From: a virus
DNA: 64,000 nucleotides
Strand: one strand, 5' to 3'
IMG/VR virus record: IMGVR_UViG_3300013111_000141
Coordinates: 1 to 64,000 of that record
Every line of letters starts with the position of its first letter. Within the stretch, counting starts at the first letter, position 1. The notes below the pieces were generated by a model. It searched no databases, had not been told where the DNA came from, and saw nothing but the letters and a program-made list of their open reading frames with translations. A program made the translations under genes and the position numbers. Below are positions 1,691 through 60,670 of this stretch, in pieces.

Positions 1691-2701
1691 CTAATCCTCA
1701 GTTGCTGGATTAAGTAGTACAACTTCTTTTGTGATATATTTACAATCATATGTATCCTTTCTACTATTTATAGTAGTAATTGTTTCTAATATATTTTTAG
1801 CCATTTTCTCAGAAGCAACATCTATCATTTTACCATCAAGTGATGCGGCACCATGTCCTTCTTTAGATGCTCTATATAATGCATCAAGTATTCTGTCAGC
1901 CATGTGTATTTCTTCAGATGATGGTGTGAATACTTCATTTGCAAGTGGAATTTGTGACGGATGAATCGCCCACTTACCAGTACATCCAAGAGCAGCAGCA
2001 CGCTTAGCAGCAAGTACATATCCCTCTGTATCCTTAATATCCCCATAAGGACCGTCTATTGGACGTAATCCATATGCCCTACACGCAACTACCATCCTAC
2101 TTAATGCAGAATGCCACTGATCTCCTGGATAATTCTCATTCAATCCACCAATATTAGTAGTTCTTGCTCTTGTAGATGCAGCGTAATCAGCAACTCCAAA
2201 ATGCATGGATTCTAACCTAGAATTAACACTCTTTCTTGCAATTTCATCAACATTAGACATACCTAGAGCGGTTTCTATTAGACACTCTAACTGAATATGT
2301 TGGTACAAATCATGTTTTATCTCTAGTGTATTAATAATACATTCAACCATATATATATCATCATATACACCTACTTTTGGTATTAATATAGTATCTAAGT
2401 TCTCACCACAATGTTCTACTAATTGTATAACATCATCTAACCAATAACCAGTTTCAAGTCCATTAATACGAACACATATAGTTTTGTTCGCACCTTTCCA
2501 ATCAAGACTATTAACAGCCTCAATGACATTTAAACGAGCCTGTATTTTATCTGATGTTGCAACTGAATCTTCTAAATCTAAAAATACAAAATCGGCATCA
2601 GAATTTAATGCCTTCTCAAACATTTTAGGACTAGATCCAGGTACTGTTAAATCACAACGTTGTAATCTAGATACTGATGGTTCATAAACTGTATAACTCA
2701 T
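1691..2701 (-). CDS. mcl: L-malyl-CoA/beta-methylmalyl-CoA lyase (CitE/HpcH family)
   Basis: VPGS, FLDLEDSV, VRING, LIETALG, FGVADYAASTRART, DGPYGD, GKWAIHPSQ; N-terminus resembles MclA/Mcl1. Confidence 0.85.
   Translation of the reverse strand: MSYTVYEPSVSRLQRCDLTVPGSSPKMFEKALNSDADFVFLDLEDSVATSDKIQARLNVIEAVNSLDWKGANKTICVRINGLETGYWLDDVIQLVEHCGENLDTILIPKVGVYDDIYMVECIINTLEIKHDLYQHIQLECLIETALGMSNVDEIARKSVNSRLESMHFGVADYAASTRARTTNIGGLNENYPGDQWHSALSRMVVACRAYGLRPIDGPYGDIKDTEGYVLAAKRAAALGCTGKWAIHPSQIPLANEVFTPSSEEIHMADRILDALYRASKEGHGAASLDGKMIDVASEKMAKNILETITTINSRKDTYDCKYITKEVVLLNPATED
1765..1772 (-). promoter_or_regulatory. T4-type late promoter TATAAATA
   Basis: Exact consensus ~80 nt upstream of the 1687-3 gene run, inside the 3' end of mcl. 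Confidence 0.6.
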
Positions 2702-2721
2702 AAACTTCTCCCATTCATTTA

Positions 2722-3123
2722 TTAAACATCCAATTTAGGATTACTTGTCTTAAAATTAGCCTTTCGCATTACTGTCTTTGAAATCATATCAAACTCTTGA
2801 TTCTTTTCATCCCATTTCAATACAAATGGTATATTAACATGTGAATTAATATCATGTAATACTCGTTGGGCATCATCTCCCAATTTAGGTATCTTTTTAC
2901 CATATTTCTTATAAGTTAACTTGAATATCCGTACAAGTTCACCCGATGAAATAGGTTTCTTATTACGATCATCATTTACTCTATCTAGAAAATGCCTTGT
3001 AAATTCAACATCAATACCAACTTTAGCAAACAGCTTATCTGCCATTCTCTCTACTGCATCTAAGTCTGCTTTACTTAAATCCTCTGAAAATAATTCTTTA
3101 GTAAATTCACCATATGATTTCAT
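2722..3123 (-). CDS. Putative internal head protein, possible BECR-fold RNase
   Basis: MKSYGEFTKE leader; FTRHFLDRVND...KTVMRK. Confidence 0.45.
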   Translation of the reverse strand: MKSYGEFTKELFSEDLSKADLDAVERMADKLFAKVGIDVEFTRHFLDRVNDDRNKKPISSGELVRIFKLTYKKYGKKIPKLGDDAQRVLHDINSHVNIPFVLKWDEKNQEFDMISKTVMRKANFKTSNPKLDV

Positions 3124-3617
3124 TTAATAATACCTATTGTCTTTATACCACTTTCATCGGTATAAATGTATTTGTATCCCAATGATTTTAACCATTTGAT
3201 AAGTTTCTCTGACCCCACTTTATAGAAAAACTTATCCAATGTCAATTGTTTATTAGAAAAATGATATAAAACCTCATCTTTCAATTTGTTTGATAACTCG
3301 GTTTCTTTCTTCGGGGGTTTGTCATTAGAGGAATGTCCGTAATTCTTACCTATACCATCAATTATATCTTTAACCTCACCCACCCTGTTTATGTTGACAA
3401 CTGCAAAGGTATATTTCTCATTAGACTTTGCATTAAATTCAACCTCAGACACTTCACCTTGATTTGCACCAAATTGATCCGCATATCCTTTAGCGTGTGA
3501 CTTAGACTGTGATATCCACATAATAGCAGACCTTGATTGTGATACACTTTCACCTTTCTTATGACCCCTATACCACGTATTCCTTCCTTCATTTATAAAC
3601 CGGTTAAAACTTTTCAT
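3120..3617 (-). CDS. Putative internal head protein, ADP-ribosyltransferase-like fold
   Basis: MKSFNRFINE leader; WYRG, WIS, AKGYA, LKSLGY..I...E. Confidence 0.45.
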   Translation of the reverse strand: MKSFNRFINEGRNTWYRGHKKGESVSQSRSAIMWISQSKSHAKGYADQFGANQGEVSEVEFNAKSNEKYTFAVVNINRVGEVKDIIDGIGKNYGHSSNDKPPKKETELSNKLKDEVLYHFSNKQLTLDKFFYKVGSEKLIKWLKSLGYKYIYTDESGIKTIGIIK

Positions 3618-4036
3618 GGGTGTTCATATCTCCCCTCAATATGAGATTTAAGATTTTCTTTATTATTATTAATTAATCCAGCATTTTCATCAATGCTTTT
3701 CCTATTATTTATAGACTCAGCATCATATATCACCTTTTCTAACTTTAAAAGATGTATCATTTCATTTGGTACATATCTCCAAACATAATCACCATCATCC
3801 TTAATAATAGAAAATACGGTTTGTGTCAATCCTATCTTCACAATAATAGCATCTGAATCATCAATCTTTACTTTATCACCCTCACCAAATGACCTATTCA
3901 AGAAAAAGGCAATCCCTTTAGCCGCAGATGATAAAAAATCCTTTACCCACATTGCTATAATACCAGCCATTAGAACTTTAACAATTGGTATCATATCATT
4001 TGTTAAAGACCCAATCAACCGTGACTCATCTATCAT
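3614..4036 (-). CDS. Small MscS-like (mechanosensitive channel beta-domain) membrane protein
   Basis: TM helix followed by FGEGDKVKI...VKIGL..T....VPN. Confidence 0.55.
   Translation of the reverse strand: MIDESRLIGSLTNDMIPIVKVLMAGIIAMWVKDFLSSAAKGIAFFLNRSFGEGDKVKIDDSDAIIVKIGLTQTVFSIIKDDGDYVWRYVPNEMIHLLKLEKVIYDAESINNRKSIDENAGLINNNKENLKSHIEGRYEHP
3706..3713 (-). promoter_or_regulatory. T4-type late promoter TATAAATA
   Basis: Exact consensus ~90 nt upstream of the 3617 start. Confidence 0.6.
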
Positions 4037-5619: not shown

Positions 5620-5807
5620 ACAACCCCCATCAATAAAACATTACTTGCTTATCGCCACATATAACTATGCGATAAGAAACATCAGATAATGATACAAAAC
5701 AAAATTCAGAAATCATTATCATAAAAATAAACAATATCAACATAACTATTATGGTGATAATATATTGTATCTTATACATTCCCCATCGCATATCATATTA
5801 CTCCCTA

Positions 5808-6236
5808 CTAATTAATATCAATAGTACGTCTTTTTTTACTTTCAGGAACAATACGTTCCAAATTAATAATTAACATCCCATTTTCCATTAAAACATCAAC
5901 TATCTCAATATCAACCGACAATGTAAACTCTTTATTAAACAATCGTCTTGATATACCATGATGTAAATAATCAGTCATATCTGTTTTATGTTGTTGATCA
6001 TTAGATTTTATTGTTAGTAATGAATCATAATATTCAACTATAATATCATCTTTTGCAAAACCAGCTAGTGCCAATTCAATCTTATACTTATCCACATTCA
6101 CCCTAACAATATTGTAAGGTGGATATTTAGAAAGAGCTTGTGAAGTAGACAACTCTTCTAACTGTTTCATTGCACGATCCATACCAATTGATATTTGTGA
6201 GTATGGAAATATAGATGGAAATTTTGTATTTGTCAT
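5808..6236 (-). CDS. hsp20: Small heat shock protein Hsp20 (IbpA-like)
   Basis: YPPYNI, IELALAGF, YLHHGIS.R.F, ENGML.I.L; start moved to the ATG after the AAGGAG SD. Confidence 0.92.
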   Translation of the reverse strand: MTNTKFPSIFPYSQISIGMDRAMKQLEELSTSQALSKYPPYNIVRVNVDKYKIELALAGFAKDDIIVEYYDSLLTIKSNDQQHKTDMTDYLHHGISRRLFNKEFTLSVDIEIVDVLMENGMLIINLERIVPESKKRRTIDIN

Positions 6237-6293
6237 AATAGACTCCTTATAAAAAAGCAAGTTAAAAAAATGTGATCCCTTATGGCAATCACG
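6237..6293 (-). promoter_or_regulatory. ROSE-like RNA thermometer in the hsp20 5' UTR
   Basis: CUUGCUU-uuuuau-AAGGAG pairs over the SD with a bulged G; an upstream GUGAUU/GAUCAC hairpin is also present. Confidence 0.65.
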
Positions 6294-6296
6294 TTA

Positions 6297-6304
6297 TATT
6301 TATA
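6297..6304 (-). promoter_or_regulatory. T4-type late promoter TATAAATA upstream of hsp20
   Basis: Exact consensus immediately 5' of the structured UTR. Confidence 0.6.
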
Positions 6305-6307
6305 ATA

Positions 6308-6637
6308 TTATAATAGTTCCCTCAATCCTTCCTGATTAGATTCACTCATCAACGGAATCCAATCCTTCATATCTTCAAGTAATTCTAAATTCTCAAAATG
6401 CCAAGTGGTATGTGAACCATCTTCAAAAAATAAAACACGAACCATAACATCATCTTCAGATGTAACCATACCAACTACACCGTATTTAGAATCAGATTCA
6501 TGAATAGGAGTTACTAAAGCACCAACATTACCATTACCAACAACTTCAAAATCTAATTCAGGAACTGTCAAAACAGGCACCTTTGTTTCTACCTTTTCTA
6601 TCTCTAATTTTAATCCAAACCAATCAAATAATTTCAT
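6308..6637 (-). CDS. Hypothetical protein (SH3-like beta content)
   Basis: Co-oriented 109-aa ORF. Confidence 0.5.
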   Translation of the reverse strand: MKLFDWFGLKLEIEKVETKVPVLTVPELDFEVVGNGNVGALVTPIHESDSKYGVVGMVTSEDDVMVRVLFFEDGSHTTWHFENLELLEDMKDWIPLMSESNQEGLRELL

Positions 6638-6746
6638 TATTATACACCAAATCTAATTGTAAACGTAATTATCATGTACAAAACAAAAACAAACATGAAC
6701 AACAAAGTCCAATATATTTTATACATGAGTATACAACACATATATT

Positions 6747-6809
6747 AAAAAAAATGGGAAAAGTGTAACAATTAATACATACAACTTGTCAATCATTACA
6801 TTTTCCCAT
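6747..6809 (-). terminator. Long hairpin with U-tract downstream of the MoxR ATPase gene
   Basis: ATGGGAAAATGTAA...TTACACTTTTCCCAT followed by a T run on the minus strand. Confidence 0.6.
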
Positions 6810-6832
6810 AAACACACCCTCGGAGAAAACTA

Positions 6833-7972
6833 TTAAAACGGTAAATTCTCTTTAACTTCTTCTGCATCATCAGTAGTACTTGATGCATCAAACTTAGTAT
6901 ACAATTCCATGAAAGTATTTTTGGTATCTTCATCAAATCGTGAAATGGCTAAGTTAATAGACTTCATACGATCTTCAAAAATTGCATATGTCTGAACAAT
7001 ATGTCCTAAACGACGAGTTGAAATAACATCATCAACACCATCATCATAAAACGTCTTACGAATACCATCTGCCCATGACACCAACAGTTTAGCAAACTCT
7101 ACATCAACCTTACCAAACGCCTTCATGTGGTTCATTAAAATCTTTTCTTCAGTAACAACTGGTGCAAATGGTTGTTCTACTGTAATCGTGAATCGTTCAA
7201 GAAACGCCTCATCAATGATTGTAGCAGCAGAGAACTTACCAGATTCAGAACCTTGACCCTTTGTGTTTGCAGTAGCAATCACATTAAAACCACGTTTCGG
7301 TTCAATCAATTCACCAGTTTTCTTAATAACAATGGGTTTACCCTCAAGAACACCTTGAAGAGCCATAATCTTATTAGAACCACGGTCAATCTCATCAATC
7401 AAGAGAATGGCACCAAGTTCCATAGCCTTTACTACTGGACCTTTTTCAAAAACAGTATCACCATTAACCAAACGGAAACCACCAATCAAATCATCTTGAT
7501 CTGTTTCTGGTGAAATCTGAACACGAATGAATTCACGTTTAGCATTAGCAGCAGCCTGTTCTACCATCATAGTTTTACCATTACCAGACAAACCAGTAAC
7601 AAAGATAGGATAGAAAAACTTTGATTTAATAATCTTCAATATGTCTTTATAAGCACCCCACTTAACAAAGTTAGGATCTACTTGTGGAACATATGACGTT
7701 TTAAATACAGGTAATGGTGGTTGTTGAACACGTTCAACAACTGGTTCAGGACCAACAGTATTAACCGGCAATACTGGTTCACGTTTTAATGGAACCACTA
7801 CACCAGTAATATTATAAACACCATGACTAACCTTATCCAATCCTTTATTAACACCTTGACCGTTAGCATAACCAATTTTTAATGCAGCCTCGGACAATTC
7901 CTTTAATGTATATTCATTTTTCTCTGGGTTTTCTGATAAAAGATAATCTTTTACTTTTTCAACTTTATTCAT
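6833..7972 (-). CDS. MoxR/CobS-like AAA+ ATPase (phage CobS family)
   Basis: Walker A GLSGNGKT, Walker B LLIDEID, ATANTKG, AFLERF, ISTRRL. Confidence 0.9.
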   Translation of the reverse strand: MNKVEKVKDYLLSENPEKNEYTLKELSEAALKIGYANGQGVNKGLDKVSHGVYNITGVVVPLKREPVLPVNTVGPEPVVERVQQPPLPVFKTSYVPQVDPNFVKWGAYKDILKIIKSKFFYPIFVTGLSGNGKTMMVEQAAANAKREFIRVQISPETDQDDLIGGFRLVNGDTVFEKGPVVKAMELGAILLIDEIDRGSNKIMALQGVLEGKPIVIKKTGELIEPKRGFNVIATANTKGQGSESGKFSAATIIDEAFLERFTITVEQPFAPVVTEEKILMNHMKAFGKVDVEFAKLLVSWADGIRKTFYDDGVDDVISTRRLGHIVQTYAIFEDRMKSINLAISRFDEDTKNTFMELYTKFDASSTTDDAEEVKENLPF

Positions 7973-7984
7973 AATATACCTTTT

Positions 7985-8125
7985 TTATTTAATTTGTTTC
8001 TCAATTTCTGAATCTTCTAATGGAATTTCAGTAAAGGTAGGATCAGATGACGAATCATCCGCAAACCAACTGGTGTATTCTTCATTAATCTCTTCAGCAG
8101 TAATAAACTCATCAAAATCAAACAT
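7985..8125 (-). CDS. 46-aa highly acidic early protein (not in the ORF track)
   Basis: MFDFDEFITAEEINEEYTSWFADDSSSDPTFTEIPLEDSEIEKQIK; AAGGTGA SD; first ORF after an early promoter. Confidence 0.6.
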   Translation of the reverse strand: MFDFDEFITAEEINEEYTSWFADDSSSDPTFTEIPLEDSEIEKQIK

Positions 8126-8141
8126 TTCTTTCACCTTTCAT

Positions 8142-8220
8142 AATTAAACACAATAACCCCAACCTTCATATGTATTGTCTCATACTTTGATATAAAAGTC
8201 AAGCATTATTTTCATTTATT
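8142..8220 (-). promoter_or_regulatory. Early sigma70 promoter/leader cassette, copy 1
   Basis: A-rich UP element, TTGACT-17-GACAAT, AAGTATGA, GGGGTTATTG leader. Confidence 0.75.
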
Positions 8221-8448
8221 CTACTTTATTTCATCCATTTTTTCAATCTCTTGTTTAATCCAAATTAAAGCAAGATGTTCGGTATTTTCAATAAACGCCT
8301 CATCCGAAACAGGAGAAGGCAGCACAGACACCATCCATTTTATCTTATCATATGCTGACATAAGCATATCATCTGAGATGGTGAATTTAGCCTTCTGTTT
8401 TCGTTCAGTCTTAATAATTTTAAGTACAGTTTCCATTGGTATAATCAT
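8221..8448 (-). CDS. Hypothetical early protein
   Basis: AGGA SD; co-oriented. Confidence 0.55.
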   Translation of the reverse strand: MIIPMETVLKIIKTERKQKAKFTISDDMLMSAYDKIKWMVSVLPSPVSDEAFIENTEHLALIWIKQEIEKMDEIK

Positions 8449-8566
8449 AATATATCCTACAATGTTAAGTATAATTCATTAACGTAAGCCACCCTAAGTA
8501 ATACAATTACCGCAGTAACAGTTATCAATTTGGTAACCAACACCTCTATAATCACAAGTAATCTTT

Positions 8567-8863
8567 TCATCTCATCTCATCTCTATAATTATTTTTAGCA
8601 TATAACACATCAGGATAAACATCAGCAACATCATCTACCATAGTATCATCATATGGTTCATCATCAGTTAATCCCATCTCATATAGACTCTGTTCAAATG
8701 CATCCAGATCAATAACTTCCTTTGGATTATAAACCCTTAATCGTTCAATGAAATTTCTTTTAATCAAGTCAGTAGTAGATACTTGACGATAATGATTTGC
8801 CGCAGATCGGATAGCAGCATCTTTCATTAACACTTTAAAATATTCTAATTCGTAATTATTCAT
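8567..8863 (-). CDS. Hypothetical early protein
   Basis: Acidic ORF; start probably at MNNYEL. Confidence 0.5.
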   Translation of the reverse strand: MNNYELEYFKVLMKDAAIRSAANHYRQVSTTDLIKRNFIERLRVYNPKEVIDLDAFEQSLYEMGLTDDEPYDDTMVDDVADVYPDVLYAKNNYRDEMR

Positions 8864-9057
8864 AATATAGGTTTCTCTCAATTAATGTAAAACTTTCTTT
8901 GTTTTAACATTGGTGGATAATAATGAACGATTTTGTTCATATTCATTAGCTAGTGCAGAATACAATCTATCCCATTCATTAGGGGTAACATCATTTAAAC
9001 GTCGTTTAGTATTTGATTCAAGTGTAACTAACTTTAATTGATTTTTCATTTTAATCC

Positions 9058-9318
9058 TTATTTAGTAGTATTTTTCCAAACTAATTGACTAAAAACAGTA
9101 ACATTGTCTTTTTTAACACGGAGGGTTAATGGTAAAAATGGGTCAGCAACCATGTAATATGTAATCTTTACCCATAACCATTTTAAATCTAATTTCTCAT
9201 TCTTATTCCACTCATTACGAATCGCAATAAGTTTCTCTTTAACAATTTGGGCTTCTGGTATAGAATTATAGGTCATTACAACCTTTCTTTCAGAAACAAA
9301 CTCAACAACAATACTCAT
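9058..9318 (-). CDS. Hypothetical early protein
   Basis: The track's TTG start is the GGAG SD; the real ATG is at 9318. Confidence 0.6.
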   Translation of the reverse strand: MSIVVEFVSERKVVMTYNSIPEAQIVKEKLIAIRNEWNKNEKLDLKWLWVKITYYMVADPFLPLTLRVKKDNVTVFSQLVWKNTTK

Positions 9319-9422
9319 AATAAACTCCAAAAATTAAACTCAATAACCCCAACTCACAGTAATATTATCTCATACTTTTATATAAATGTCAAGCTTTATT
9401 TTCATTTATTTTCATTTATTTT
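9319..9422 (-). promoter_or_regulatory. Early sigma70 promoter/leader cassette, copy 2
   Basis: Repeated AAATAAATGA UP element, TTGACA-17-GATAAT, conserved leader and SD. Confidence 0.8.
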
Positions 9423-9778
9423 CAAACACCTGTCCATTGTATAACATCAGGCATATTAGTAAGAACATTACCACGTGGAAAGTTACGTGCCGGAGATGTC
9501 CATGATGCAGCTTTAAGGAGATCTCCATAAGCAAACTTCTTATCTTTTTTGGATATCACAATAAATCCCTTTACGGAACCGTTGTGTATCAATTTAACAT
9601 AGTTTCTTCCTATCTTAAATTCGGTGTCAACCTTGTATTCATCATACCAATGCACCCACACCTTGTCTTTATTATGGTCATATTGGACTATTTCTTGTGA
9701 TCTTTGTGCCCAAGTGGCATAATCAGATGCCATCTTATTAAGAACATTCTCAATTACTTCTCTATTCACTTCACTCAT
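9422..9778 (-). CDS. Conserved phage hypothetical early protein
   Basis: GRNYVKL...SV.GF......GDLLKAASW..PA...RGNV is a recurrent phage motif. Confidence 0.65.
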   Translation of the reverse strand: MSEVNREVIENVLNKMASDYATWAQRSQEIVQYDHNKDKVWVHWYDEYKVDTEFKIGRNYVKLIHNGSVKGFIVISKKDKKFAYGDLLKAASWTSPARNFPRGNVLTNMPDVIQWTGV

Positions 9779-9793
9779 AATATACTCCATAAT

Positions 9794-9988
9794 TTAGTAG
9801 TCAAGGGAAGAGTAATAAGCATCTAAAGCATATTCATATAAATTATCATCAAAAATCTCAATTTCCTCTTCCTTCATCTCCCTAACAATATCCTTAGAAA
9901 CCTCTAAATCTAGGTAAATATTATCTTCCTTTTCCAATCTCTCAATAACCCTTTTGATAACAATCAGATCACCTTTATCTATAATCAT
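9794..9988 (-). CDS. Acidic hypothetical early protein
   Basis: ATG after the GGAG SD of the leader cassette. Confidence 0.6.
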   Translation of the reverse strand: MIIDKGDLIVIKRVIERLEKEDNIYLDLEVSKDIVREMKEEEIEIFDDNLYEYALDAYYSSLDY

Positions 9989-10081
9989 AATAAACTCCAA
10001 TAATTAAACTCAATAACCCCAACCACAGTACTATTGTCTCATACTATGGTTATAAAGTCAAGGATTATTTTCATTTATTTT
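9989..10081 (-). promoter_or_regulatory. Early sigma70 promoter/leader cassette, copy 3
   Basis: TTGACT-17-GACAAT with the shared UP element and leader. Confidence 0.8.
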
Positions 10082-10463
10082 AAATTAATTCGTATGGTTT
10101 TTCCCAAGTTCCTATCTGCAAATCAATATAAAATGCAGTATGAAAATAGTCAGTCATAATGTCAGAATCATCAAACCAAGCTTCTCCATTATCTGCATTG
10201 GCAGGTGCAGTCTTAATGATTTCAAGAATTTTATTCAGAACCTTTGCAGGTTTCTTTGACCAATGTTTATCAATAAAGTATTGATTAACTCCTTCATATT
10301 TATCAGTAGGATCACGGAATTCAGAACGAAAGTCAATATCAGACTTCAATATATTAACCGATACGGAATGTTGACGTTTACGAACAGAAAATTTATACTT
10401 TGGGAATTCTTTCTTTAACTCTTTACGAATCTCTCTAACTTCTTCAGCACTTATATATGCCAT
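10080..10463 (-). CDS. LPD29-like (large polyvalent protein-associated domain) protein
   Basis: IRKELKKEFP..KFSVR ... SDIMTDYFH. Confidence 0.65.
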   Translation of the reverse strand: MAYISAEEVREIRKELKKEFPKYKFSVRKRQHSVSVNILKSDIDFRSEFRDPTDKYEGVNQYFIDKHWSKKPAKVLNKILEIIKTAPANADNGEAWFDDSDIMTDYFHTAFYIDLQIGTWEKPYELI

Positions 10464-10487
10464 CTAACTTCTCCAATAATAAAAATA

Positions 10488-10558
10488 AATAACCCCAACT
10501 CACAGTAATATTATCTCATACTTTTATATAAATGTCAAGCTTTATTTTCATTTATTTT
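10488..10558 (-). promoter_or_regulatory. Early sigma70 promoter/leader cassette, copy 4
   Basis: About 70 nt identical to copy 2. Confidence 0.8.
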
Positions 10559-10883
10559 AATACCGTGATGGTTTTTCTGGCCAAAAAACAGTTTCAGTCG
10601 GTTGTCCAGTTGCCAACTCTTCTTCATAAATTTCATTGGGTAAATCTCTCAATTCTTGTCTATACTCCATCCATTCATTTAAATATTCATGAACAGATGA
10701 ATATCTCGCATCAGGATCACGAAATTTAGCATCATCCTTATCTCTAATATGAATCTCATTATCTGTATATGTCTTACCAAGCACCGTATATGGACGTGGT
10801 AATTTAACACTTACATCTACACCAATCCAATCACTTTCTTCCAATAATTCATCACGTATTTTTCTCAATTCAACCATATCCAT
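10557..10883 (-). CDS. Tail-fibre assembly chaperone-like protein
   Basis: RKIRDELLEESDW...WMEYRQELRDLP...WPEKP; start uncertain. Confidence 0.6.
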   Translation of the reverse strand: MDMVELRKIRDELLEESDWIGVDVSVKLPRPYTVLGKTYTDNEIHIRDKDDAKFRDPDARYSSVHEYLNEWMEYRQELRDLPNEIYEEELATGQPTETVFWPEKPSRY

Positions 10884-11006
10884 AGCAACCACCTATTAAC
10901 TTAAAATATTAACTACTAATGCAACTGAAGCACCAATAGACCATAGTGTTAACAATTCATAATCAACAACAACCTCAACTCTACCATCAATCAATCGTAC
11001 CAACAT

Positions 11007-11088
11007 AATATACTCCAAAATTAAACTCAATAACCCCCAACTCACAGTAATATTGTCTCATACTTTTATATAAATGTCAAGGTTTATT
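11007..11088 (-). promoter_or_regulatory. Early sigma70 promoter/leader cassette, copy 5
   Basis: TTGACA-17-GACAAT with the shared leader and GGAG SD. Confidence 0.8.
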
Positions 11089-11349
11089 TGTATATATTTT
11101 ATAAAATATATACAATGCAAAAACAACCATAATAGGAAATAACAATATATAACTAACAGCTTCTAAAAATGTCATTTCTGATACAAATAAAACCAAAATC
11201 TCCCAATTAGTCTTATCAGGCATTATTCTCATTAGGAATTCTGAATATAATACCCCAAAACCCACCATACTATGAAAGGTAATGTGATTATAAAATGGGA
11301 TAAAAATGTAGTCTTATTACACCTTAAAATATATAACATAGGTTTCTTC

Positions 11350-12495
11350 TTATTCATCAACTTTCCTCATAATATAACAAATTTCGTACTTCTCCATTTC
11401 AGTAAGTCCACGTGTGATTTCTAATGGTGGTAGTATCTTTATTTCATCTAATAACTCAAATCGTTCCTTTGCAATACTCATCATATCATCACCCATCATA
11501 TAACCACGTATAAACCTACCCATAACAAAACAAAATAAACCACCAGATTTTAATACTTTATTACACTCATCTACAGTTTTTCGCCAATAACCATCCAACC
11601 AGTTAGAATATGTAGAGTATAAATTAGTAGATTGTTCATCTGAACCACCATACAATTCTAAATCATAATATGGAGGACAAAAGAAAATCTTATCATAATC
11701 ATCATCAACAACCACCGACATATTCTCTGACGATATACAAAATGTCTTTAAATCATGAGGTGGACCAAAAATATCTAATGATGTAACTTCTTCAAAGACA
11801 CCATCAATCGTATCTAATACATCTTTTTGCACATCTACTATATGAATATCTCTATAATTTGTACTATTTGTAGTTGCTAATATAGGCGAACACCAAGAGG
11901 CAGACGGTATTAACATTTTCTGATCTACTGTATCAGAGTATTCATCACATTTAATTAATAAAGACCTATATACAGTTGGACTAAATACTGACATTTGTCC
12001 AGTGACTGTTTTCATCGTTACAACAAAAGTTTCATAATTTCCAATATAACTATCTTTAAAAACAGAAGGTATCGTTATACATGGATCAATTTTTCCTACT
12101 TCCAACGCATTCTTATACACAACCTTTATACTCATCCCATCATATCCCATAGAATCTAGCATACTTGGAAGATTCACATTACGTATAAATCTAACATTAT
12201 TTGAAACTAACTTTATTTCATTTCCCATAATAGGTATAGTATTTACTGGCATTGGTTCAACATAAGACAATCTACGTTGAAAATATAATTTCAAAGGTTC
12301 ATCTGAATGAATGAAATCATAACACCAATCATACCATGATTTTTTTGTTTTTAAAGCAACAACTCGTATATCAGAATCATCAAATTTATCCCATAGTTTT
12401 CCAAGTTGTTCTGTTTTATAAAACTCTTCACGTGATAATGGGTTTATTTCACTTCTGATAATATCAATAAAATCAGATTCATTATATATTTTCAT
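11350..12495 (-). CDS. Divergent DNA amino-methyltransferase-like protein
   Basis: FFCPPYYDLELY...WL..YW...LKSGG.F; motif I region is degenerate (IPSASW). Confidence 0.55.
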   Translation of the reverse strand: MKIYNESDFIDIIRSEINPLSREEFYKTEQLGKLWDKFDDSDIRVVALKTKKSWYDWCYDFIHSDEPLKLYFQRRLSYVEPMPVNTIPIMGNEIKLVSNNVRFIRNVNLPSMLDSMGYDGMSIKVVYKNALEVGKIDPCITIPSVFKDSYIGNYETFVVTMKTVTGQMSVFSPTVYRSLLIKCDEYSDTVDQKMLIPSASWCSPILATTNSTNYRDIHIVDVQKDVLDTIDGVFEEVTSLDIFGPPHDLKTFCISSENMSVVVDDDYDKIFFCPPYYDLELYGGSDEQSTNLYSTYSNWLDGYWRKTVDECNKVLKSGGLFCFVMGRFIRGYMMGDDMMSIAKERFELLDEIKILPPLEITRGLTEMEKYEICYIMRKVDE

Positions 12496-14205: not shown

Positions 14206-14209
14206 AATA

Positions 14210-21773: not shown

Positions 21774-21794
21774 TCATAATTAACTTATACCCCA

Positions 21795-23695: not shown

Positions 23696-23696
23696 G

Positions 23697-47963: not shown

Positions 47964-48377
47964 TCATAACCTATTTAAATGTGACTTCCGAACCTTAACC
48001 ATTATCCATGAATTATAATATTCATCACTCTCTAATACCTTGTAATCAAATTGATACTTAGCCTCAAAATACGCACATTCAGACTTAGTTTTACACAACC
48101 TTAAAATCTTTCTATCAAATTGTTCAACACCAATTTTATTTAAATCTTCTAATAATAATTCAGAAGAACCATAATAATCTCGCCAATCAGATTCTACCTT
48201 CTTCTTCTTTCTCTTTTTATTCTTTTGATATGACTTAATAGACCAAAAGAATTTCTTACCTATATACTTCTTACCATTATCTTTATTAGTTATTTCATAT
48301 ACAAACCCATATAAAAGTTTTGGATCTAAATTCTTGGGTACATATACCTTATTCCTATACATCCATGTCATACACAC
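47964..48377 (-). CDS. GIY-YIG domain protein
   Basis: GFVYEITN...KKYIGKK ... Y.GSS ... E ... YYN. Confidence 0.75.
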   Translation of the reverse strand: MCMTWMYRNKVYVPKNLDPKLLYGFVYEITNKDNGKKYIGKKFFWSIKSYQKNKKRKKKKVESDWRDYYGSSELLLEDLNKIGVEQFDRKILRLCKTKSECAYFEAKYQFDYKVLESDEYYNSWIMVKVRKSHLNRL

Positions 48378-50207: not shown

Positions 50208-51518
50208 TTATAAAAAACTATCCAAATCAGTCACAGGTTCAACCGAATCTATTCTTGATGTTGCAATCTCAAAATACTCTTGTTCTTTCTCGATACCGAT
50301 AAAATCAAAACCCTCATCTTTTGCAGCCATTCCAGTTGAACCACTTCCCATAAATGGGTCAAGAACAGTTCCACCTTTTGGTGTTACGAGTCTGCATAGG
50401 TATTTCATTAACTCTACAGGTTTAACCGTTGGATGTATATTCTTTCGTTCTGTTACAAATCTTCCAGTAACATCATTATCTATCTTTGATTTATCCATTT
50501 CATGTGGATCTCGTCTACCAGACATACTTGATGTCTTTTTGATAGGCATTTCATCACAACCCTGATTTCTTTCTTTCTTAGACACCTTTGGCGAATAGAA
50601 ATATCTTGCAGCTGAACCATCATCTCCATATTCTCTACCGGATGGGGATCCTGTTGATTTATCCCAAATACCACCAGATTTTGAACCTTCACCTTTGTAT
50701 TTACCAGCTTTAGTATATGGAAATACCTCTTTCACAACATCAGAACCATCATGCATTACATTTGATGGGAATCTACCAATTGAAGTGGATTCAATATCAG
50801 ACGGTTTCCAATTATCATCATGCATTACACCTAATGAAGACATTCCCCTATGTGTTCTTTCTTCATTTCGTACTCTACAACCATCAATATTAATACCACC
50901 AGTTCCATGTTTCAATACATTTGTGACAATAGTCTTTTCTGATAATGGTTTCCTAGCCATTACAATCGGTTCGTGTGCCGGTTTTAATGCAGTTCCCCAA
51001 CCTTCCCATTCTGAATTACCTCTATCTACAACAACCTCTGTAGTTGCATTTGTCTCGTTTGGTCTATAACCCTGTTCTTTTCTAGTTTTAGAAATACTTA
51101 CCTGATATCCACAACTTTTAGTTCCAACTACTTCTCTTTCATTGCCCTGTTTTGCATCTACCGATTTTCCGATGTTGTGCGACTTTGGAAACCCAGAACC
51201 ATAGAGCCACATAATCTGATCTCGTATCTCAAACCCTGCGTCCTCAATAGCAACTGCCATTCTATGATAGGTTCTAGAACCAGAAAATGCAAGTAAATGA
51301 CCACCGGGTTTCAATAACTTTAATGCAAGTTCCCACGTTTCTTTAGAAAATGCTATACCAGTATCATCCCATTGTTTCCCCATAAATCCTAACTCATATG
51401 GAGGATCCGTAACAATTGATTCAACTTGCACACCATCATCTATCATCTGTTTCATTCTATCAATACAATCATCACAATACAGTATCATCACCACCATCCT
51501 TACTGGGGAAAAAATCAT
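50208..51518 (-). CDS. Beta-class DNA N4/N6 methyltransferase
   Basis: VTDPPY, HPTVKP, VLDPFMGSGSTG; start probably ~30 nt downstream. Confidence 0.88.
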   Translation of the reverse strand: MIFSPVRMVVMILYCDDCIDRMKQMIDDGVQVESIVTDPPYELGFMGKQWDDTGIAFSKETWELALKLLKPGGHLLAFSGSRTYHRMAVAIEDAGFEIRDQIMWLYGSGFPKSHNIGKSVDAKQGNEREVVGTKSCGYQVSISKTRKEQGYRPNETNATTEVVVDRGNSEWEGWGTALKPAHEPIVMARKPLSEKTIVTNVLKHGTGGINIDGCRVRNEERTHRGMSSLGVMHDDNWKPSDIESTSIGRFPSNVMHDGSDVVKEVFPYTKAGKYKGEGSKSGGIWDKSTGSPSGREYGDDGSAARYFYSPKVSKKERNQGCDEMPIKKTSSMSGRRDPHEMDKSKIDNDVTGRFVTERKNIHPTVKPVELMKYLCRLVTPKGGTVLDPFMGSGSTGMAAKDEGFDFIGIEKEQEYFEIATSRIDSVEPVTDLDSFL

Positions 51519-53123: not shown

Positions 53124-55406
53124 CTATAAGTCAAGTCTTTTTTCAATAAAAATTGAAATTCTTTCCCATATTAAATCCGAATTATTATACAATATACCAT
53201 GACAATCTGAACCAATAATATGCATTTCCTTATCAGAGGAAACCACATTATTATATATATAATCAGCACCCCTAACTGAAACCAATGAATCATCTTTAGA
53301 ATATATAATCAACATAGGAACTGTTACATTAGATAATGTACTCTTAATACTTTTAACCAATCTTCCTACCTCATATATACTAAACGTTGGTATTATCCAA
53401 TAATTAATATGTTCATTCTCAGGGATATTCTTAAAAAATGTTTTAACTCCATTACATGATAATAATGTACTAACAACCTTATTAATACCGTTAATTATAG
53501 GTACAAACTTAATTCTAGTATCATCATAAAAAATAGGAGCAGATATAACAACTATAGATTTAACCCTAGAATCATTTATAAACTCTTTACGTAATGCAAT
53601 TGCACCACCAGTAGAAAACCCAACAATCACAATATTTTTAGACAACATAGAAGCCATGTCAAAATAACTATAAACCGATTTTATCCAATCATTATGGTTA
53701 TATTGCATCAACTCATATGGTGACGTACCATGACCAACGATTCTAGCACCAACAACAATATAACCAATTCCACACAAATAATCACCAAACCCCCTAACTT
53801 CTGCCGGTGATGACAATAATCCATGAATTAACAATATTACCACACCATTAGACTTTTTAGGAAATAAAATAAAAGGATTATCATCAGAAGTATTAATTTC
53901 AGAAAATTTAGAATTATATTTATCATTACTATATAATTTCTTATCATATGTTAACGATAGTTTCTGATCATCCAATAAATGTAATGCTATATCTTTATTA
54001 GTAACCTTATGCATATCACTAATAACACTCTTAACAACATTACCAACCAAAGAAACTGGTTGTATCTCATTATAATATACAACTAATAAATTCTCAACCC
54101 TAACTGTTAATGGATCAACATTAAAATTAAACTTACCAGATAAATATATAGTATTACTCCCTATGACCAATACACCTTGTTTCTCAAGAGACTCAATATA
54201 TTTTAATACATCTACATTATTACCACTTAATATATCACCATAAAGATGTGGAGTTAATAACCCACTATGTAATCTAATTCCAGACTTCTGTTGTAATGTC
54301 TTTAACACCAAATATAATTCTTTATGTAATTGATCCTTGGAAATAGATACTATATTTTGTTTAAATCTATACATCAATAAGCAAGATATTAAATGACTTA
54401 AATTAATAGTAACATAAGAATAAATACTCTTAGTGTAATAGTCACGTGTAAGATTAGAACACTTTATAAGATGCTTATGCAACATATCGACTTTCCAAGA
54501 CTTATCAACATCACCAATAGAAAACACATCATCTAAGGATTTTATAGAATCAGTAAATGTTTCAGTTAACGACGACTTCCATGAATGCCAAATACCGGAG
54601 GTAGATATCACTTTGCTCATAACAACATCCATATCAGTATCTTTAGTAATTAAATTACCCTCAACTAACAACTCTTCTGTTTGTCGTAATGTGAGTCCAT
54701 TAGAAATATATTCAACTGCCTTCAATAAAACATTATCAGTTACACGCAAAGGATAAAACGTTATATTAGATGCAACTATATTAGTAGGTTTTGATACTGC
54801 ATCCAATAACTCATCCAAACTATTAAAATCTAATTCCTTTTGCCACATTAATAATCTATCCATGTCCATATCTCTATGAGCATTACGAACTATAAACTTA
54901 AACACCTCCAACCCATGTGACAAAACAGCTGCCCCAGTATGTTGTTTCCGTACTTTCATAGTTGTTTGACATAACATATTATAATGTCCTTCATCATCAA
55001 CAACCCTATGATCCTTTACCATTCCACCTTCAGGAAAAATAACAACTTTATGTCCGTGTAATATTTGTTTCGCTAAAATAGGAAATAATCTGGGGTGATT
55101 ATGAGGGACAACTCCTAACTTACTTAAATAGGATGATAATATATTATCATTTTTAAAAAATTCACCAGACCCAACAGAATAACAATAACTACCATTTTCT
55201 TCATGTATCAAATATTGAGGGATAAATGTTTCTATACGAGAAAAATGATTAAATACAAATATACTACCATCGTCAATATTAATATCAGAATGAATATTAA
55301 TATTAATTCTTAATAATCGTTTCAGAATTCTAAATGAACGTATAGATAATCTATACATACGTTTATCTATATCAATCCAATCACGATTATACTTAAACCC
55401 ACTCAT
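53124..55406 (-). CDS. Glycerolipid acyltransferase-like domain fused to an alpha/beta-hydrolase (esterase/lipase)
   Basis: NHFSRIE and IFPEGG (PlsB/C-like); HG, GFSTG, D, H triad in the C-terminal domain. Confidence 0.75.
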   Translation of the reverse strand: MSGFKYNRDWIDIDKRMYRLSIRSFRILKRLLRININIHSDINIDDGSIFVFNHFSRIETFIPQYLIHEENGSYCYSVGSGEFFKNDNILSSYLSKLGVVPHNHPRLFPILAKQILHGHKVVIFPEGGMVKDHRVVDDEGHYNMLCQTTMKVRKQHTGAAVLSHGLEVFKFIVRNAHRDMDMDRLLMWQKELDFNSLDELLDAVSKPTNIVASNITFYPLRVTDNVLLKAVEYISNGLTLRQTEELLVEGNLITKDTDMDVVMSKVISTSGIWHSWKSSLTETFTDSIKSLDDVFSIGDVDKSWKVDMLHKHLIKCSNLTRDYYTKSIYSYVTINLSHLISCLLMYRFKQNIVSISKDQLHKELYLVLKTLQQKSGIRLHSGLLTPHLYGDILSGNNVDVLKYIESLEKQGVLVIGSNTIYLSGKFNFNVDPLTVRVENLLVVYYNEIQPVSLVGNVVKSVISDMHKVTNKDIALHLLDDQKLSLTYDKKLYSNDKYNSKFSEINTSDDNPFILFPKKSNGVVILLIHGLLSSPAEVRGFGDYLCGIGYIVVGARIVGHGTSPYELMQYNHNDWIKSVYSYFDMASMLSKNIVIVGFSTGGAIALRKEFINDSRVKSIVVISAPIFYDDTRIKFVPIINGINKVVSTLLSCNGVKTFFKNIPENEHINYWIIPTFSIYEVGRLVKSIKSTLSNVTVPMLIIYSKDDSLVSVRGADYIYNNVVSSDKEMHIIGSDCHGILYNNSDLIWERISIFIEKRLDL

Positions 55407-56410
55407 GTTATTAAAAACTCATCAAGCGTGACAGCATTCTTACGTTCAGTCTCAGTATTAACATTCTCTTTAGTTATCTTAAAAAACTGTTCTGATGCTT
55501 CAAATCCAATATACTTTCTACCAAGTTGTGATGCTCTAACTAATGTAGTGCCTGTGCCAGAAAAGGGGTCAAGAACAACACCACCTACTGGACAACCCGC
55601 AATTATAGGTTTATCAATTAATTCTGAATTATATGAAGCAAGGTGTGAAGAACGATTACCCTTTATCGTGATATTCCAAAAATCAGCAACATCACCCGGG
55701 TTCTTTCCTTTTGGATTTAATGAAGTATTACCACTATTGTATTCATCAATATCACGTCCACCATTCTTTGGTCTAGAAAGACTTTGAGCAGAACTCACCC
55801 CAATACCAGTAGAATACTTATTTTCATTAGTACCACGTAAGGCTCTTTTAATAGAAGTAGTCATATTCTCATCACGAATAGAATCAAGGTCAAAATAATA
55901 ACCTTTAGGTTTCTTCGTCATTAAAAATATATATTCGTGTTTCTTTGAGAATCTATCACGAACTGATTCCGGCATACCATTTCTCTTTGCCCAGATTATA
56001 TCATTACGAATAGTCCAACCACGATCATAACAACCAATAGCAAATCTATGAGGAATCAATAATAAACTTTTAGATCTCAAATCAGATGGTTGTTTTATCA
56101 CCATACCACCCAAATATTCACCAGTTCTACTTCCGGTATATCCCATATTAAGTCCACCAGATTTAGTAGAATATGTGTCGCCAAGATTGATCCACACAGT
56201 ACCAGTATCTTTTAAAACTCTATATATCTCATCCATCATTTCCCATAAATGTTCAAGATATTCTTGAAATGTGGGTTCTAATCCCCACTGCCCATCAAAC
56301 CCATAGTCTCTTAATTGCCAATATGGCGGTGACGTAATGACACAATCAATAGATGCATCATCTAACTTTTTGAAACCTTCCATGATGTCACAATTATATA
56401 TTTTATCCAA
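55403..56410 (-). CDS. Beta-class DNA (N4-cytosine-type) methyltransferase
   Basis: ITSPPYW.LRDY, H.A, VLDPFSGTGTT; start set at the TTG after GGAGG. Confidence 0.88.
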   Translation of the reverse strand: MDKIYNCDIMEGFKKLDDASIDCVITSPPYWQLRDYGFDGQWGLEPTFQEYLEHLWEMMDEIYRVLKDTGTVWINLGDTYSTKSGGLNMGYTGSRTGEYLGGMVIKQPSDLRSKSLLLIPHRFAIGCYDRGWTIRNDIIWAKRNGMPESVRDRFSKKHEYIFLMTKKPKGYYFDLDSIRDENMTTSIKRALRGTNENKYSTGIGVSSAQSLSRPKNGGRDIDEYNSGNTSLNPKGKNPGDVADFWNITIKGNRSSHLASYNSELIDKPIIAGCPVGGVVLDPFSGTGTTLVRASQLGRKYIGFEASEQFFKITKENVNTETERKNAVTLDEFLIT

Positions 56411-56433
56411 ATCAAACCCTCCACTATATTCAT

Positions 56434-56462
56434 AGTATACCACACCCCAACTTAATTGTCAA
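56434..56462 (-). promoter_or_regulatory. Sigma70 promoter
   Basis: TTGACA-17-TATACT with TGn. Confidence 0.7.
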
Positions 56463-56470: not shown

Positions 56471-57115
56471 TTAATTTTTTTCCAATGCTAATTGAAACGA
56501 AGGTCTGACTATACAACGGTCAACATACGATTTAAGATGTGGGAAGTCATGTAAAAGTTCTGGGAACCAATTCAATGTAGATGATACCATTATATCAACA
56601 ACAGAAAATTCATGTCCTATCATATATGGACGTTGAACCATCATTGGATTATTACCATTCATAGAATTGTCTATAACTACTAATATTTTTTTATATCGTT
56701 CTAAAGAATATTCAACAACCGACTGTCTACGTTTTTCTTTAGGCAACAACTTACTATGTAAAAATATATCCACCAACGGATACTCCATAGTAGAAGTAAC
56801 ATAAAACATCCACTTCAAATACTCAGTCCGATACAAACTAGACACGTCAGGAGACAACCCCGATTCAGGATTCATATCACACAAATACATACAAATAGCA
56901 CCAGCCTCCCATATAACATTATTATTATACTTTAATGTCGGTACGGATGCATTTGGATTCAATGTCAAATAATCTCTATCTGTTTTACCATCACCAAATA
57001 TATTGATTGGTGTTAACTGATACTCAATACCTAATTCTTCTAATAACCATAAAGGTCTAAATGACCTCGTATCAGTACAATGATACAACTCAATAATATC
57101 GTTACTCATATTCAC
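56471..57115 (-). CDS. Glutathione S-transferase
   Basis: RS.R..WLLEELG, LNP...VP.L, E.GAI..YL, FS..DI. Confidence 0.9.
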   Translation of the reverse strand: MNMSNDIIELYHCTDTRSFRPLWLLEELGIEYQLTPINIFGDGKTDRDYLTLNPNASVPTLKYNNNVIWEAGAICMYLCDMNPESGLSPDVSSLYRTEYLKWMFYVTSTMEYPLVDIFLHSKLLPKEKRRQSVVEYSLERYKKILVVIDNSMNGNNPMMVQRPYMIGHEFSVVDIMVSSTLNWFPELLHDFPHLKSYVDRCIVRPSFQLALEKN

Positions 57116-59355: not shown

Positions 59356-59381
59356 ATATTACAACTCTAATTGTAAAATTA

Positions 59382-59389
59382 TATTTATA
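59382..59389 (-). promoter_or_regulatory. T4-type late promoter TATAAATA
   Basis: Exact consensus 27 nt upstream of the 59355 start. Confidence 0.7.
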
Positions 59390-59392
59390 ATA

Positions 59393-60670
59393 TTAAAACT
59401 GTTCCTCTTCAGTAGAACCGTCCATAGCAGTAACAGATGATTTACCACCTTGTATAACATTTGTAACAGAATCAAAATAACCAGCACCAACTTCCTCTTG
59501 ATGCCTTGCAAATGTATATCCATCTTTAACCGAAGCAAACTCAGGTTCTTGGACACCCTCCACATAAGCAGTCATACCACGTTCAACATAATCCTTTGAC
59601 AACTCAAACATAGAATGCCACATATCATGAATACCAGCCAACGTAATAAATTGCCATTTGAACCCCATCTCCCCCAATTTTTGTTGATAGTGTCTTATTT
59701 CTTCGTCACTTAAATTCTTCTTCCAGTTGAATGACGGAGAGCAATTATACGCCAACAATTTTCCAGGGTACTGTTGATGGATTGCCGTAGCGAACTTCTG
59801 TGCCTCTTCTAAGTTCGGGACCGCAGTTTCGCACCATAACATATCAGCATACGCCGCATAAGATAATCCCCTTGATATCGCCTGATCTATTCCGCAGTTA
59901 ACTCGGAAAAACCCTTCCTCAGTTCTCTCCCCTGTGACGAATTCCTTGTCACGGACATCAATATCAGATGTTAACAAAGTTGCTGCATTAGCGTCGGTTC
60001 TTGCGATAATAACGATAGGCACTCCCATAACATCAGATGCCAATCTGGCAGAAATTAATTTCTGAATCGCCTCTTGTGTTGGTACTAACACCTTACCACC
60101 CATATGTCCACATTTCTTAGCAGATGATAATTGATCTTCTAAATGAATACCCGATACACCACACTCTATCATAGATTTAGTCAACTCATAAGAATTCAAC
60201 ACCCCGCCAAACCCAGCCTCAGCATCAGCGATAATTGGAGCAAAGTAATCAATATCATTTCTTCCCTTATTCCATTGAATTTCATCTGCTCTACGGAATG
60301 TATTATTAATACGTCTTACCATCATTGGTACTGAATTATATGCATATAATGATTGATCTGGATACATTGTTTCTGACGAATTACCATCAGCAGCAACTTG
60401 CCAACCTGATAAATATATAACCTTAATACCAGCCTTAACTTGTTGCATAGCCTGTCCAGCAGTTATAGCCCCCATAGAATTAACATATCCATCTTCGTTA
60501 ATCAATTTCCAAAGTTTTTTAGAACCCACGGTAGACACTGTATATTCTTCATCAAACGAACCGCTTAACCTAATAACATCTTCTGCCGAATAATCACGTT
60601 TGACATTCAACCAACGTTCATTCTCACTCCAATCTTTCTCTAAAGTTCGTACTCTACCCAATTGTTCCAT
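59393..60670 (-). CDS. aceA: Isocitrate lyase
   Basis: [59 protein letters not shown]. Confidence 0.97.

Follow-up and report, generated by a model that had tools for sequence, protein, structure and literature searches.

We analyzed a 64,000-nt stretch of viral DNA (hereafter the window), comprising bases 1–64,000 of the linear 96,760-bp IMG/VR virus record IMGVR_UViG_3300013111_000141 (G000), which carries genes for an isocitrate lyase (ICL, AceA) and for a malyl-CoA lyase (Mcl) of the MclA/Mcl1 type. We propose, with a probability of about 0.5, that the phage clade to which this DNA belongs encodes a variant, Mcl-based glyoxylate bypass that feeds gluconeogenesis and nucleotide synthesis. 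The bypass would have been built from two separately acquired bacterial genes. Four related phage contigs were compared with the window contig: G001 (115 kb), G002 (61 kb), G003 (37 kb), and G005 (12 kb).

The ICL gene lies at 59393–60670 on the minus strand, starts 21 nt downstream of NrdA, and encodes 425 aa (PF00463, E 6e-112). The protein scored 737 bits against the NCBIfam equivalog PRK15063 (cut-off 562) and 602 bits against TIGR01346 (cut-off 276), and ICL structures from Yersinia pestis and E. coli (3LG3 and 1IGW) aligned with it over its full length (633 bits). The catalytic KKCGH motif that the first-pass annotation had pointed out in this gene was recovered at residues 185–189 in the translation and in the alignment with 3LG3; its codons occupy 60104–60118 on the minus strand. 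The gene is thus predicted to encode a full, intact isocitrate lyase of the gammaproteobacterial type. In the ICL tree, the copies of the window phage and its relatives formed a single clade nested among gammaproteobacterial ICLs, the nearest cellular sequences (75–76% identity) coming from unclassified metagenome-assembled genomes (MAGs) with contigs of 2.3–2.5 Mb. The ICLs of Phage C48C1 and of large IMG/VR phages fell in separate clades, and ICL has therefore been acquired by phages more than once.

The Mcl gene, at 1691–2701 on the minus strand, encodes 336 aa with a CitE-like TIM barrel (PF03328, 128 bits) and a C-C_Bond_Lyase lid (PF15617, 37 bits). Its top structure match was the malyl-CoA/beta-methylmalyl-CoA lyase of Methylorubrum extorquens (5UGR; 339 bits, E 3e-100), followed by Mcl1 of Rhodobacter sphaeroides (4L9Y; 283 bits). 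Other subfamilies scored lower: 169 bits for Chloroflexus MCL, 116 for CLYBL, 101 for RipC, at most 84 for CitE, and 40 for haloarchaeal malate synthase. NCBIfam contains no bacterial MclA model, and the top names that it returned for the lyase stayed far under their cut-offs (RipC, 170 vs 375 bits; CitE, 160 vs 443 bits). In R. sphaeroides numbering, the active site comprises Asp42, Glu44, Asp45, Arg76, Glu141, Asp168, and Asp299, of which Arg76 and Asp299 are catalytic, Glu141 and Asp168 are Mg ligands, and Glu44 and Asp45 are water ligands (Zarzycki and Kerfeld, PMC3832036). The phage protein has D42, E44, D45, R78, E143, D172, and D294 at the aligned positions, all of them invariant in the alignment, and the catalytic position of the lid is thus Asp (D294) and not the Glu of Mcl2 thioesterases. 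Furthermore, of 142 alignment columns with at least 95% conservation among 80 cellular Mcl proteins, 128 were unchanged in all six phage copies, and the remaining changes were mostly conservative. In the tree, the phage copies formed one clade with a support of 100 and a long stem; they grouped with proteins encoded beside mtkAB, and their nearest neighbors were Nitrosomonadaceae and Methylococcaceae sequences (66–68% identity). Comparison with Protein Data Bank structures and the catalytic residues both place the protein with the characterized MclA/Mcl1 enzymes, as the first-pass annotation had predicted. As far as sequence can tell, a citrate, citramalyl, or itaconate-pathway lyase was rejected on the same two grounds, including the citryl- or citramalyl-CoA lyase that the annotation had considered as the alternative. 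The gene is best annotated as an MclA/Mcl1-type (S)-malyl-CoA/beta-methylmalyl-CoA lyase. The window copy is longer than those of five relatives (336 aa vs 318–321 aa), owing to a C-terminal tail of about 17 aa with a shifted stop (1691–1741).

No malate synthase had been noticed in the window, and none turned up when the search was extended to all 96.76 kb of the contig and to its relatives: PF01274 gave no match above cut-off in G000–G004 or in Phage C48C1 (G005 was not searched), and its sole match in the phage contigs was a sub-threshold one to the lyase itself. In G000–G003 and G005, we found no malate thiokinase CoA-ligase domain (PF00549, Ligase_CoA), no second HpcH/CitE paralog (Mcl2), each contig having one HpcH/CitE gene, no class-V aminotransferase (PF00266, serine-glyoxylate aminotransferase), no malic enzyme, and no acyl-CoA synthetase. 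Consequently none of aceB, mcl2, and mtkAB, the genes that the first-pass annotation had proposed to look for, turned up in the contigs covered. Among the open reading frames (ORFs) that were scanned there was no 2-hydroxyacid dehydrogenase (hydroxypyruvate reductase), the lone weak PF02826 match lying inside alanine dehydrogenase (AlaDH), and no mesaconyl-CoA hydratase, for which no aimed search was made.

G000 is a genuine marine T4-like myovirus of an uncultured lineage and not host contamination, as its interspersed T4 core genes, even GC content, and nearest gp23 relatives show. The GC content stayed at 0.30–0.33 across the window, and 101 of the 102 ORFs called there are on the minus strand and densely packed. 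T4 RNase H, NrdA, NrdB, ThyX, and Dut lie inside the window, while the rest of the contig holds gp41 helicase, UvsX, the family-B polymerase gp43, gp46/47-like proteins, UvsW, the capsid protein gp23, scaffold, the portal gp20, and the sheath gp18. The isolates nearest by gp23 were Methylophilales phage Melnitz (60%), Pelagibacter phage HTVC008M (58%), and cyanomyoviruses (57%). CheckV gave a completeness of 54% for the record, implying a genome of about 179 kb, of which G000 and G001 combined represent roughly 134 kb. There was no sign of lysogeny in the annotated parts of the G000 contig, and the late-promoter motif TATAAATA was not enriched (11 occurrences vs 20.9 expected). Three routes to a host assignment were tried and rejected. 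By gp23, OM43, SAR11, and cyanophage isolates are about equally distant (57–60%); the ICL and FadE types point to Gammaproteobacteria, but the type of Mcl is one from the Methylococcales/Nitrosomonadaceae side; and the Rfam 15 family of the permuted transfer-messenger RNA (tmRNA) does not separate classes. This two-piece tmRNA, at 34232–34680 on the minus strand, scored 89.9 bits against RF04321 (cut-off 47) and was not reported by ARAGORN.

MclA-type genes were present in only five IMG/VR contigs besides that of the window; ICL accompanies them in four of these, the remaining one being a fragment of 42 kb. G001 comes from an independent sample and assembly, shares 97–99% protein identity with the window contig, and has the same ICL–Mcl spacing (about 56 kb). 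G002, G003, and G005 are more divergent (88–92% identity). In G005, ICL is followed after a 28-nt spacer by Mcl, then directly by FadE, a PurN-like formyltransferase and, further on, gp32. The order in G002 is thiolase, FadJ and, after other genes, lipase, ribose-phosphate pyrophosphokinase (Prs), Mcl, about 3.7 kb, ICL, a 152-aa ORF, phosphoenolpyruvate (PEP) synthase (PpsA), FtsH, and a hotdog-fold thioesterase, with everything from thiolase to ICL that is named here lying within one 16-kb stretch. G003 has the lipase-to-PEP-synthase part of this order, through FtsH and with the same gap of about 3.7 kb; in both contigs lipase, Prs, and Mcl are contiguous and Prs is the immediate upstream neighbor of Mcl. 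The block of PEP synthase, FtsH, and thioesterase spans 9896–16483 of the G002 locus and 5675–10435 of the G001 locus, where it lies about 11–13 kb past the left end of the window contig. The PEP synthase matched its model at equivalog level (1101 bits, cut-off 598), and the thioesterase matched Pfam 4HBT (54 bits) and resembles the acyl-CoA hydrolases 5SZU, ACOT7, ACOT12, and YciA. ICL and Mcl were thus brought together at least twice, in different arrangements. Because the two genes are adjacent or about 3.7 kb apart in these relatives, beside beta-oxidation genes, Prs, PurN, and PEP synthase, gene order strengthens the case for a functional link between them. Both are under strong purifying selection: the ratio of nonsynonymous to synonymous substitution rates (dN/dS) in pairwise comparisons with the phage relatives was 0.03–0.06 for ICL and 0.07–0.23 for Mcl. 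Five or six assemblies, made from different samples, hold intact copies of the two genes, and their GC content has been ameliorated to 0.35–0.40. For FadE, the pairwise dN/dS was 0.11.

The same juxtaposition was not observed in cells: ICL lay within 10 kb of Mcl in none of 80 cellular Mcl loci. The pairing was therefore made in phages, and import of ICL and Mcl as a ready-made cellular operon was rejected. In marine Gammaproteobacteria and SAR11, Mcl adjoins MtkA and MtkB. At the gammaproteobacterial locus L100, for example, 5-formyltetrahydrofolate cyclo-ligase, an FTR-like gene, FolD, and a class-V aminotransferase precede Mcl–MtkA–MtkB and a 2-hydroxyacid dehydrogenase follows; PF00549 (malate thiokinase) lies beside Mcl at L100 and L121, and in one case (L120, from G020) PEP carboxylase also belongs to the cluster. 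These clusters, sga-mcl-mtkA-mtkB-hpr(-ppc), are of the serine-cycle type, and the phage has taken only the lyase from such a cluster and joined it anew to ICL. We also took a census of ICL, Mcl, and malate synthase in 30 genomes with Mcl. Gammaproteobacterial MAGs, including four closed chromosomes (G019, G020, G024, and G032; aquatic MAGs of 1.9–2.7 Mb), combine ICL with Mcl and lack malate synthase, and these closed chromosomes show that such an enzyme set exists in nature. Most SAR11 have ICL, malate synthase G, and Mcl, with mcl-mtkAB carried by SAR11 single-amplified genomes, and Nitrosomonas, Methylobacter, and Roseovarius have Mcl but lack ICL.

The window supplies further enzymes on both sides of the proposed bypass; the genes given below for FadE, PurN, AlaDH, thiolase, FadJ, lipase, Prs, PyrD, and PanD are on the minus strand. 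A FadE-type acyl-CoA dehydrogenase lies at 14210–16363 (NCBIfam PRK09463, 905 bits vs 600). It is followed by a 212-aa PurN-like formyltransferase at 13567–14205 (PF00551, 114 bits), an order kept in G005, and by AlaDH at 12492–13601 (TIGR00518, 400.5 bits vs 391.85). A thiolase (36966–38270) and a FadJ/FadB-type multifunctional enzyme (34974–36962), both identified with Pfam and NCBIfam, represent the acetyl-CoA-yielding steps of beta-oxidation, and a class-3 lipase is encoded at 32575–33357 (PF01764, E 1e-19). Together with an acyltransferase/alpha-beta hydrolase, the lipase, FadE, FadJ, and thiolase imply a large supply of acetyl-CoA. Enzymes that use aspartate, phosphoribosyl pyrophosphate (PRPP), folate, or pyruvate are also numerous. 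They include Prs at 29850–30803 (Pfam Pribosyltran_N and Pribosyl_synth), the quinone-dependent dihydroorotate dehydrogenase PyrD at 26192–27358 (TIGR01036, 222 bits vs 200), which is a step of the aspartate-derived pyrimidine branch, and the aspartate 1-decarboxylase PanD, which makes beta-alanine for CoA, at 23174–23695 (PF02261, E 4e-37). NrdA (60692–62455), NrdB (49002–50195), ThyX (47189–47953), PurN, DHFR, inorganic pyrophosphatase, tryptophanase, and AlaDH belong to the same group, and Dut is encoded at 46484–47005. Prs, PurN, PyrD, NrdAB, ThyX, and Dut had all been named by the first-pass annotation, and each could be located; the lipid-to-deoxynucleotide route that it drew through them is coherent, but it is not a demonstrated pathway.

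Herein, we describe how the bypass would work. MclA/Mcl1 enzymes are reversible lyases. ICL would split isocitrate into succinate and glyoxylate, and the MclA-type lyase would join glyoxylate and acetyl-CoA to (S)-malyl-CoA, that is, would carry out the C–C bond-forming half of the malate synthase reaction. Malate would then be freed from malyl-CoA by a thioesterase, for which the ACOT7/YciA-class hotdog enzyme of the relatives is a candidate, or alternatively by a host enzyme, e.g., malate thiokinase running backwards. The acetyl-CoA would come from the phage lipase, FadE, FadJ, and thiolase. The four-carbon (C4) products could pass to aspartate and from there to PyrD and PanD, and also to pyruvate, phage PEP synthase, gluconeogenesis, ribose-5-phosphate and, via Prs, PRPP. 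There is a precedent for the central step: in R. sphaeroides, Mcl1 together with a thioesterase acts as an ‘apparent malate synthase’ (Erb et al. 2010, cited in PMC8307300; PMC3832036). For the phage, what the sequences show is which genes are present, how well they are conserved, and how they are linked; which way the Mcl reaction runs, which enzyme discharges malyl-CoA, and whether carbon flows to nucleotides are inferred. A fuller version of the proposal is that a lytic marine T4-like clade has assembled its own malate-synthase-free bypass from ICL, the MclA-type lyase, and the hotdog thioesterase, and has joined it to a complete beta-oxidation set and PEP synthase, so that a self-contained pathway would lead during infection from host lipid through acetyl-CoA, C4 acids, and PEP to PRPP. 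We advance it tentatively, as having somewhat less than an even chance of being right. Bolder is the sub-variant in which host malate thiokinase, working in reverse, would discharge malyl-CoA and save one ATP per turn.

Several observations weigh against an Mcl-based bypass. ICL and Mcl are 57 kb apart in the window and in different transcription units, and hence they form neither an operon nor a physical module there; the first-pass annotation, which had called them a module, is supported by the linkage in G002, G003, and G005 and not by the window itself. The hotdog thioesterase was seen only in G001, after PpsA–FtsH, and in G002, after ICL–PpsA–FtsH, both outside G000, and MclA-type enzymes have been reported to be without malyl-CoA hydrolysis (PMC3832036). 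In all the cellular relatives looked at, Mcl shares its cluster with mtkAB and with genes for an sga-like aminotransferase and an hpr-like dehydrogenase. Serine-cycle clusters of this kind are the context in which Mcl cleaves malyl-CoA. Finally, since G000 and G001 cover only part of the estimated genome, the absence of malate synthase is not proven for the whole of it, and the unseen part (about 25%) could hold aceB, glcB, or mtkAB.

The cellular context leads to the alternative that survives best, which is that the two enzymes supply glyoxylate. Host malate thiokinase would make malyl-CoA, and ICL and Mcl, both of which form glyoxylate in the icl+ serine cycle, would raise the glyoxylate level; glyoxylate would then be converted to glycine by host serine-glyoxylate aminotransferase or by phage AlaDH, serving purine synthesis (PurN, Prs) and one-carbon (C1) units for ThyX and DHFR. 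The cellular homologs of the lyase do lie in serine-cycle clusters with folate-C1 genes, and the gammaproteobacterial MAGs that carry this cluster, having ICL and no malate synthase, possess the gene set of an icl+ serine cycle. PurN stands between FadE and AlaDH in the window and after ICL–Mcl–FadE in G005, and both DHFR and ThyX are encoded. Alanine dehydrogenase (Ald) of M. tuberculosis also aminates glyoxylate to glycine (PMC4874671); by this precedent the phage enzyme, besides converting pyruvate to alanine, might possibly do the same. However, the phage fragments have neither Mtk nor a class-V aminotransferase, and hydroxypyruvate reductase was absent from the scanned ORFs. Cleavage of malyl-CoA would moreover cost ATP and add to an acetyl-CoA pool already in excess from beta-oxidation, so that mass action would probably disfavor it, and the neighboring PEP synthase suits gluconeogenesis better. 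Sequence cannot decide between replacement of malate synthase and supply of glyoxylate; we lean to replacement and consider glyoxylate supply unlikely, though a serious contender.

A further and more doubtful alternative is that ICL and Mcl have independent roles. ICL alone would channel isocitrate into succinate, either for use in respiration or to conserve carbon, and Mcl would either remove toxic glyoxylate or interconvert propionyl-CoA (from odd-chain fatty acids) and glyoxylate with beta-methylmalyl-CoA. This would agree with the distance between the genes in the window and with the bifunctionality of MclA/Mcl1 enzymes, which also act on beta-methylmalyl-CoA (PMC3832036; name of 5UGR). 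In addition, two complete phages, Phage C48C1 and a 337-kb IMG/VR phage, carry ICL without malate synthase or a CitE-like gene, and a survey of huge phages counted 98 ICL and only 22 malate synthase genes (bioRxiv 10.1101/2025.02.27.640493). Yet in IMG/VR, Mcl occurs only in the clade that also has ICL, where the genes were brought together at least twice, and no mesaconyl-CoA hydratase was among the scanned ORFs, although this enzyme was not specifically sought. The remaining idea, that ICL and Mcl are passenger or decaying host DNA or the product of a chimeric assembly, without a role in infection, is very improbable: the contig comes from metagenomic assembly and is classed as a linear fragment, but its GC content is even and its genes tightly packed nearly all on one strand, T4 core genes (RNase H, NrdAB, gp41, gp43, UvsX, gp23, and gp20) are interspersed, and the conservation of both genes described above already contradicts it.

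The Mcl-based bypass that we favor has several known counterparts, and part of it is not new. aceA and aceB have been seen in ocean viromes (PMC4053976), ICL and malate synthase genes are known from huge phages through the 2025 preprint cited above, and a canonical aceB-aceA operon was found in the complete 178,632-bp T4-like marine viral genome TARA_ERS478052_N000008 (Nishimura et al. 2017, PMC5332604), whose authors inferred a lysogenic, host-benefiting role. The window phage resembles the latter in being a marine T4-like phage of about 179 kb whose intact ICL is paired with an enzyme for the consumption of glyoxylate and acetyl-CoA and, in G001, in having a zeta-toxin-like gene. This 316-aa gene (14712–15662 of the G001 locus; weak Pfam match) recalls the zeta-toxin homolog of the aceBA-carrying TARA genome. 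The partner differs, however: in the TARA genome it is malate synthase A (502 aa, PF01274), adjoining ICL, whereas the window clade has an MclA-type lyase of the CitE family and no malate synthase was found. GC content also differs (37.5% vs 32%), and the window clade has, beyond the TARA genome, a beta-oxidation set, PEP synthase, and a thioesterase.

The combination of Mcl1 and Mcl2 in R. sphaeroides is a second counterpart, with a lyase of the same subfamily, the same catalytic residues, and a two-step conversion of glyoxylate and acetyl-CoA to malate, which for the phage is proposed. Unlike R. sphaeroides, the phage contigs have no Mcl2 paralog, and the only candidate hydrolase is the unrelated thioesterase of the relatives. 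The source of glyoxylate in Rhodobacter is the ethylmalonyl-CoA pathway and not ICL. The icl+ serine cycle, with MclA of M. extorquens as the closest solved homolog of the phage lyase, is likewise configured with ICL and Mcl and without malate synthase. In the sequence covered, however, the phage lacks mtkAB, sga, hpr, and ppc, and its Mcl is linked to ICL, FadE, and Prs instead; relative to that cycle, its Mcl probably runs in the reverse direction. With ICL-only phages (Phage C48C1, OQ984149; huge phages; virome aceA) the clade shares a virus-encoded ICL as an auxiliary metabolic gene, but their ICLs form separate clades, and Phage C48C1 and the 337-kb phage have no CitE-like partner. The ICL homolog of Phage C48C1 (OQ984149.1), a complete 156-kb member of the Kyanoviridae, is at 8995–10236 of locus L167, shares 52.5% identity, and is annotated as a hypothetical protein. 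In a full-text literature search for malyl-CoA lyase and phage, none of the matches listed had a title or abstract on a phage-encoded Mcl. Thus, of the phage glyoxylate module suggested by the first-pass annotation, Mcl in the place of malate synthase is new, while phage ICL and the canonical aceBA pair were already published.

Several other genes of the window were considered in passing. A 576-aa thiamine pyrophosphate (TPP) enzyme at 30800–32530 was rejected as a glyoxylate carboligase or oxalyl-CoA decarboxylase; its best matches were indolepyruvate/phenylpyruvate decarboxylase models, under cut-off, and no link of this enzyme to glyoxylate was found. It forms part of a pyruvate-centered set (23174–25055, 30800–32530, and 12492–13601) of a tryptophanase-family lyase (684 bits on a subfamily model), PanD, the TPP-dependent 2-keto-acid decarboxylase, and AlaDH, which, with the PpsA of the relatives, suggests that amino-acid carbon is also channeled to PEP. 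A 729-aa protein (16991–19180), whose gene lies between Mcl and ICL in G002 and G003, was rejected as the missing FadD or a transporter, having no Pfam match and being grouped by the ESM Atlas with phage CobT-like proteins. With an AAA_5 ATPase at 6833–7972 it may, at a guess, form a cobaltochelatase-like pair (CobT with its AAA partner). DNA methyltransferase genes are many, with two strong N6_N4 genes, one of the D12/Dam class, and Eco57I-like and N6_Mtase fragments; the methyltransferase/S-adenosylmethionine (SAM)-lyase set, which includes a SAM-lyase-family gene, occupies 19254–22704, 50208–51518, 55403–56443, and 48387–48992, and a SegE-type GIY-YIG endonuclease is encoded at 47964–48377. 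Other cargo (27952–29248, 38670–41633, 53124–55406, and 56471–57115) comprises inorganic pyrophosphatase, an FTR1-like iron permease, DnaK and DnaJ, a 760-aa acyltransferase/alpha-beta-hydrolase fusion, and a glutathione S-transferase.

That marine phages redirect host carbon has already been concluded from virus-encoded genes of the glyoxylate shunt, and the clade described here shows a different solution. An enzyme of the serine cycle, Mcl, has been removed from its cellular context and re-linked by a phage to ICL, fatty-acid oxidation, PEP synthase, and nucleotide genes. The analysis also draws attention to aquatic Gammaproteobacteria whose closed genomes hold ICL and Mcl–MtkAB and no malate synthase, with regard to their acetate and C1 metabolism. 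If the proposed bypass is correct in its fuller version, it would be the first ‘apparent malate synthase’ based on Mcl to be encoded by a virus. A working bypass would also be a compact, testable case of pathway building by a phage through a gene juxtaposition that was seen in no examined cell. The small natural enzyme set of ICL, Mcl, and thioesterase would then be of interest to pathway engineers, and membrane or storage lipid would probably be the carbon source for phage DNA in nutrient-poor seawater.

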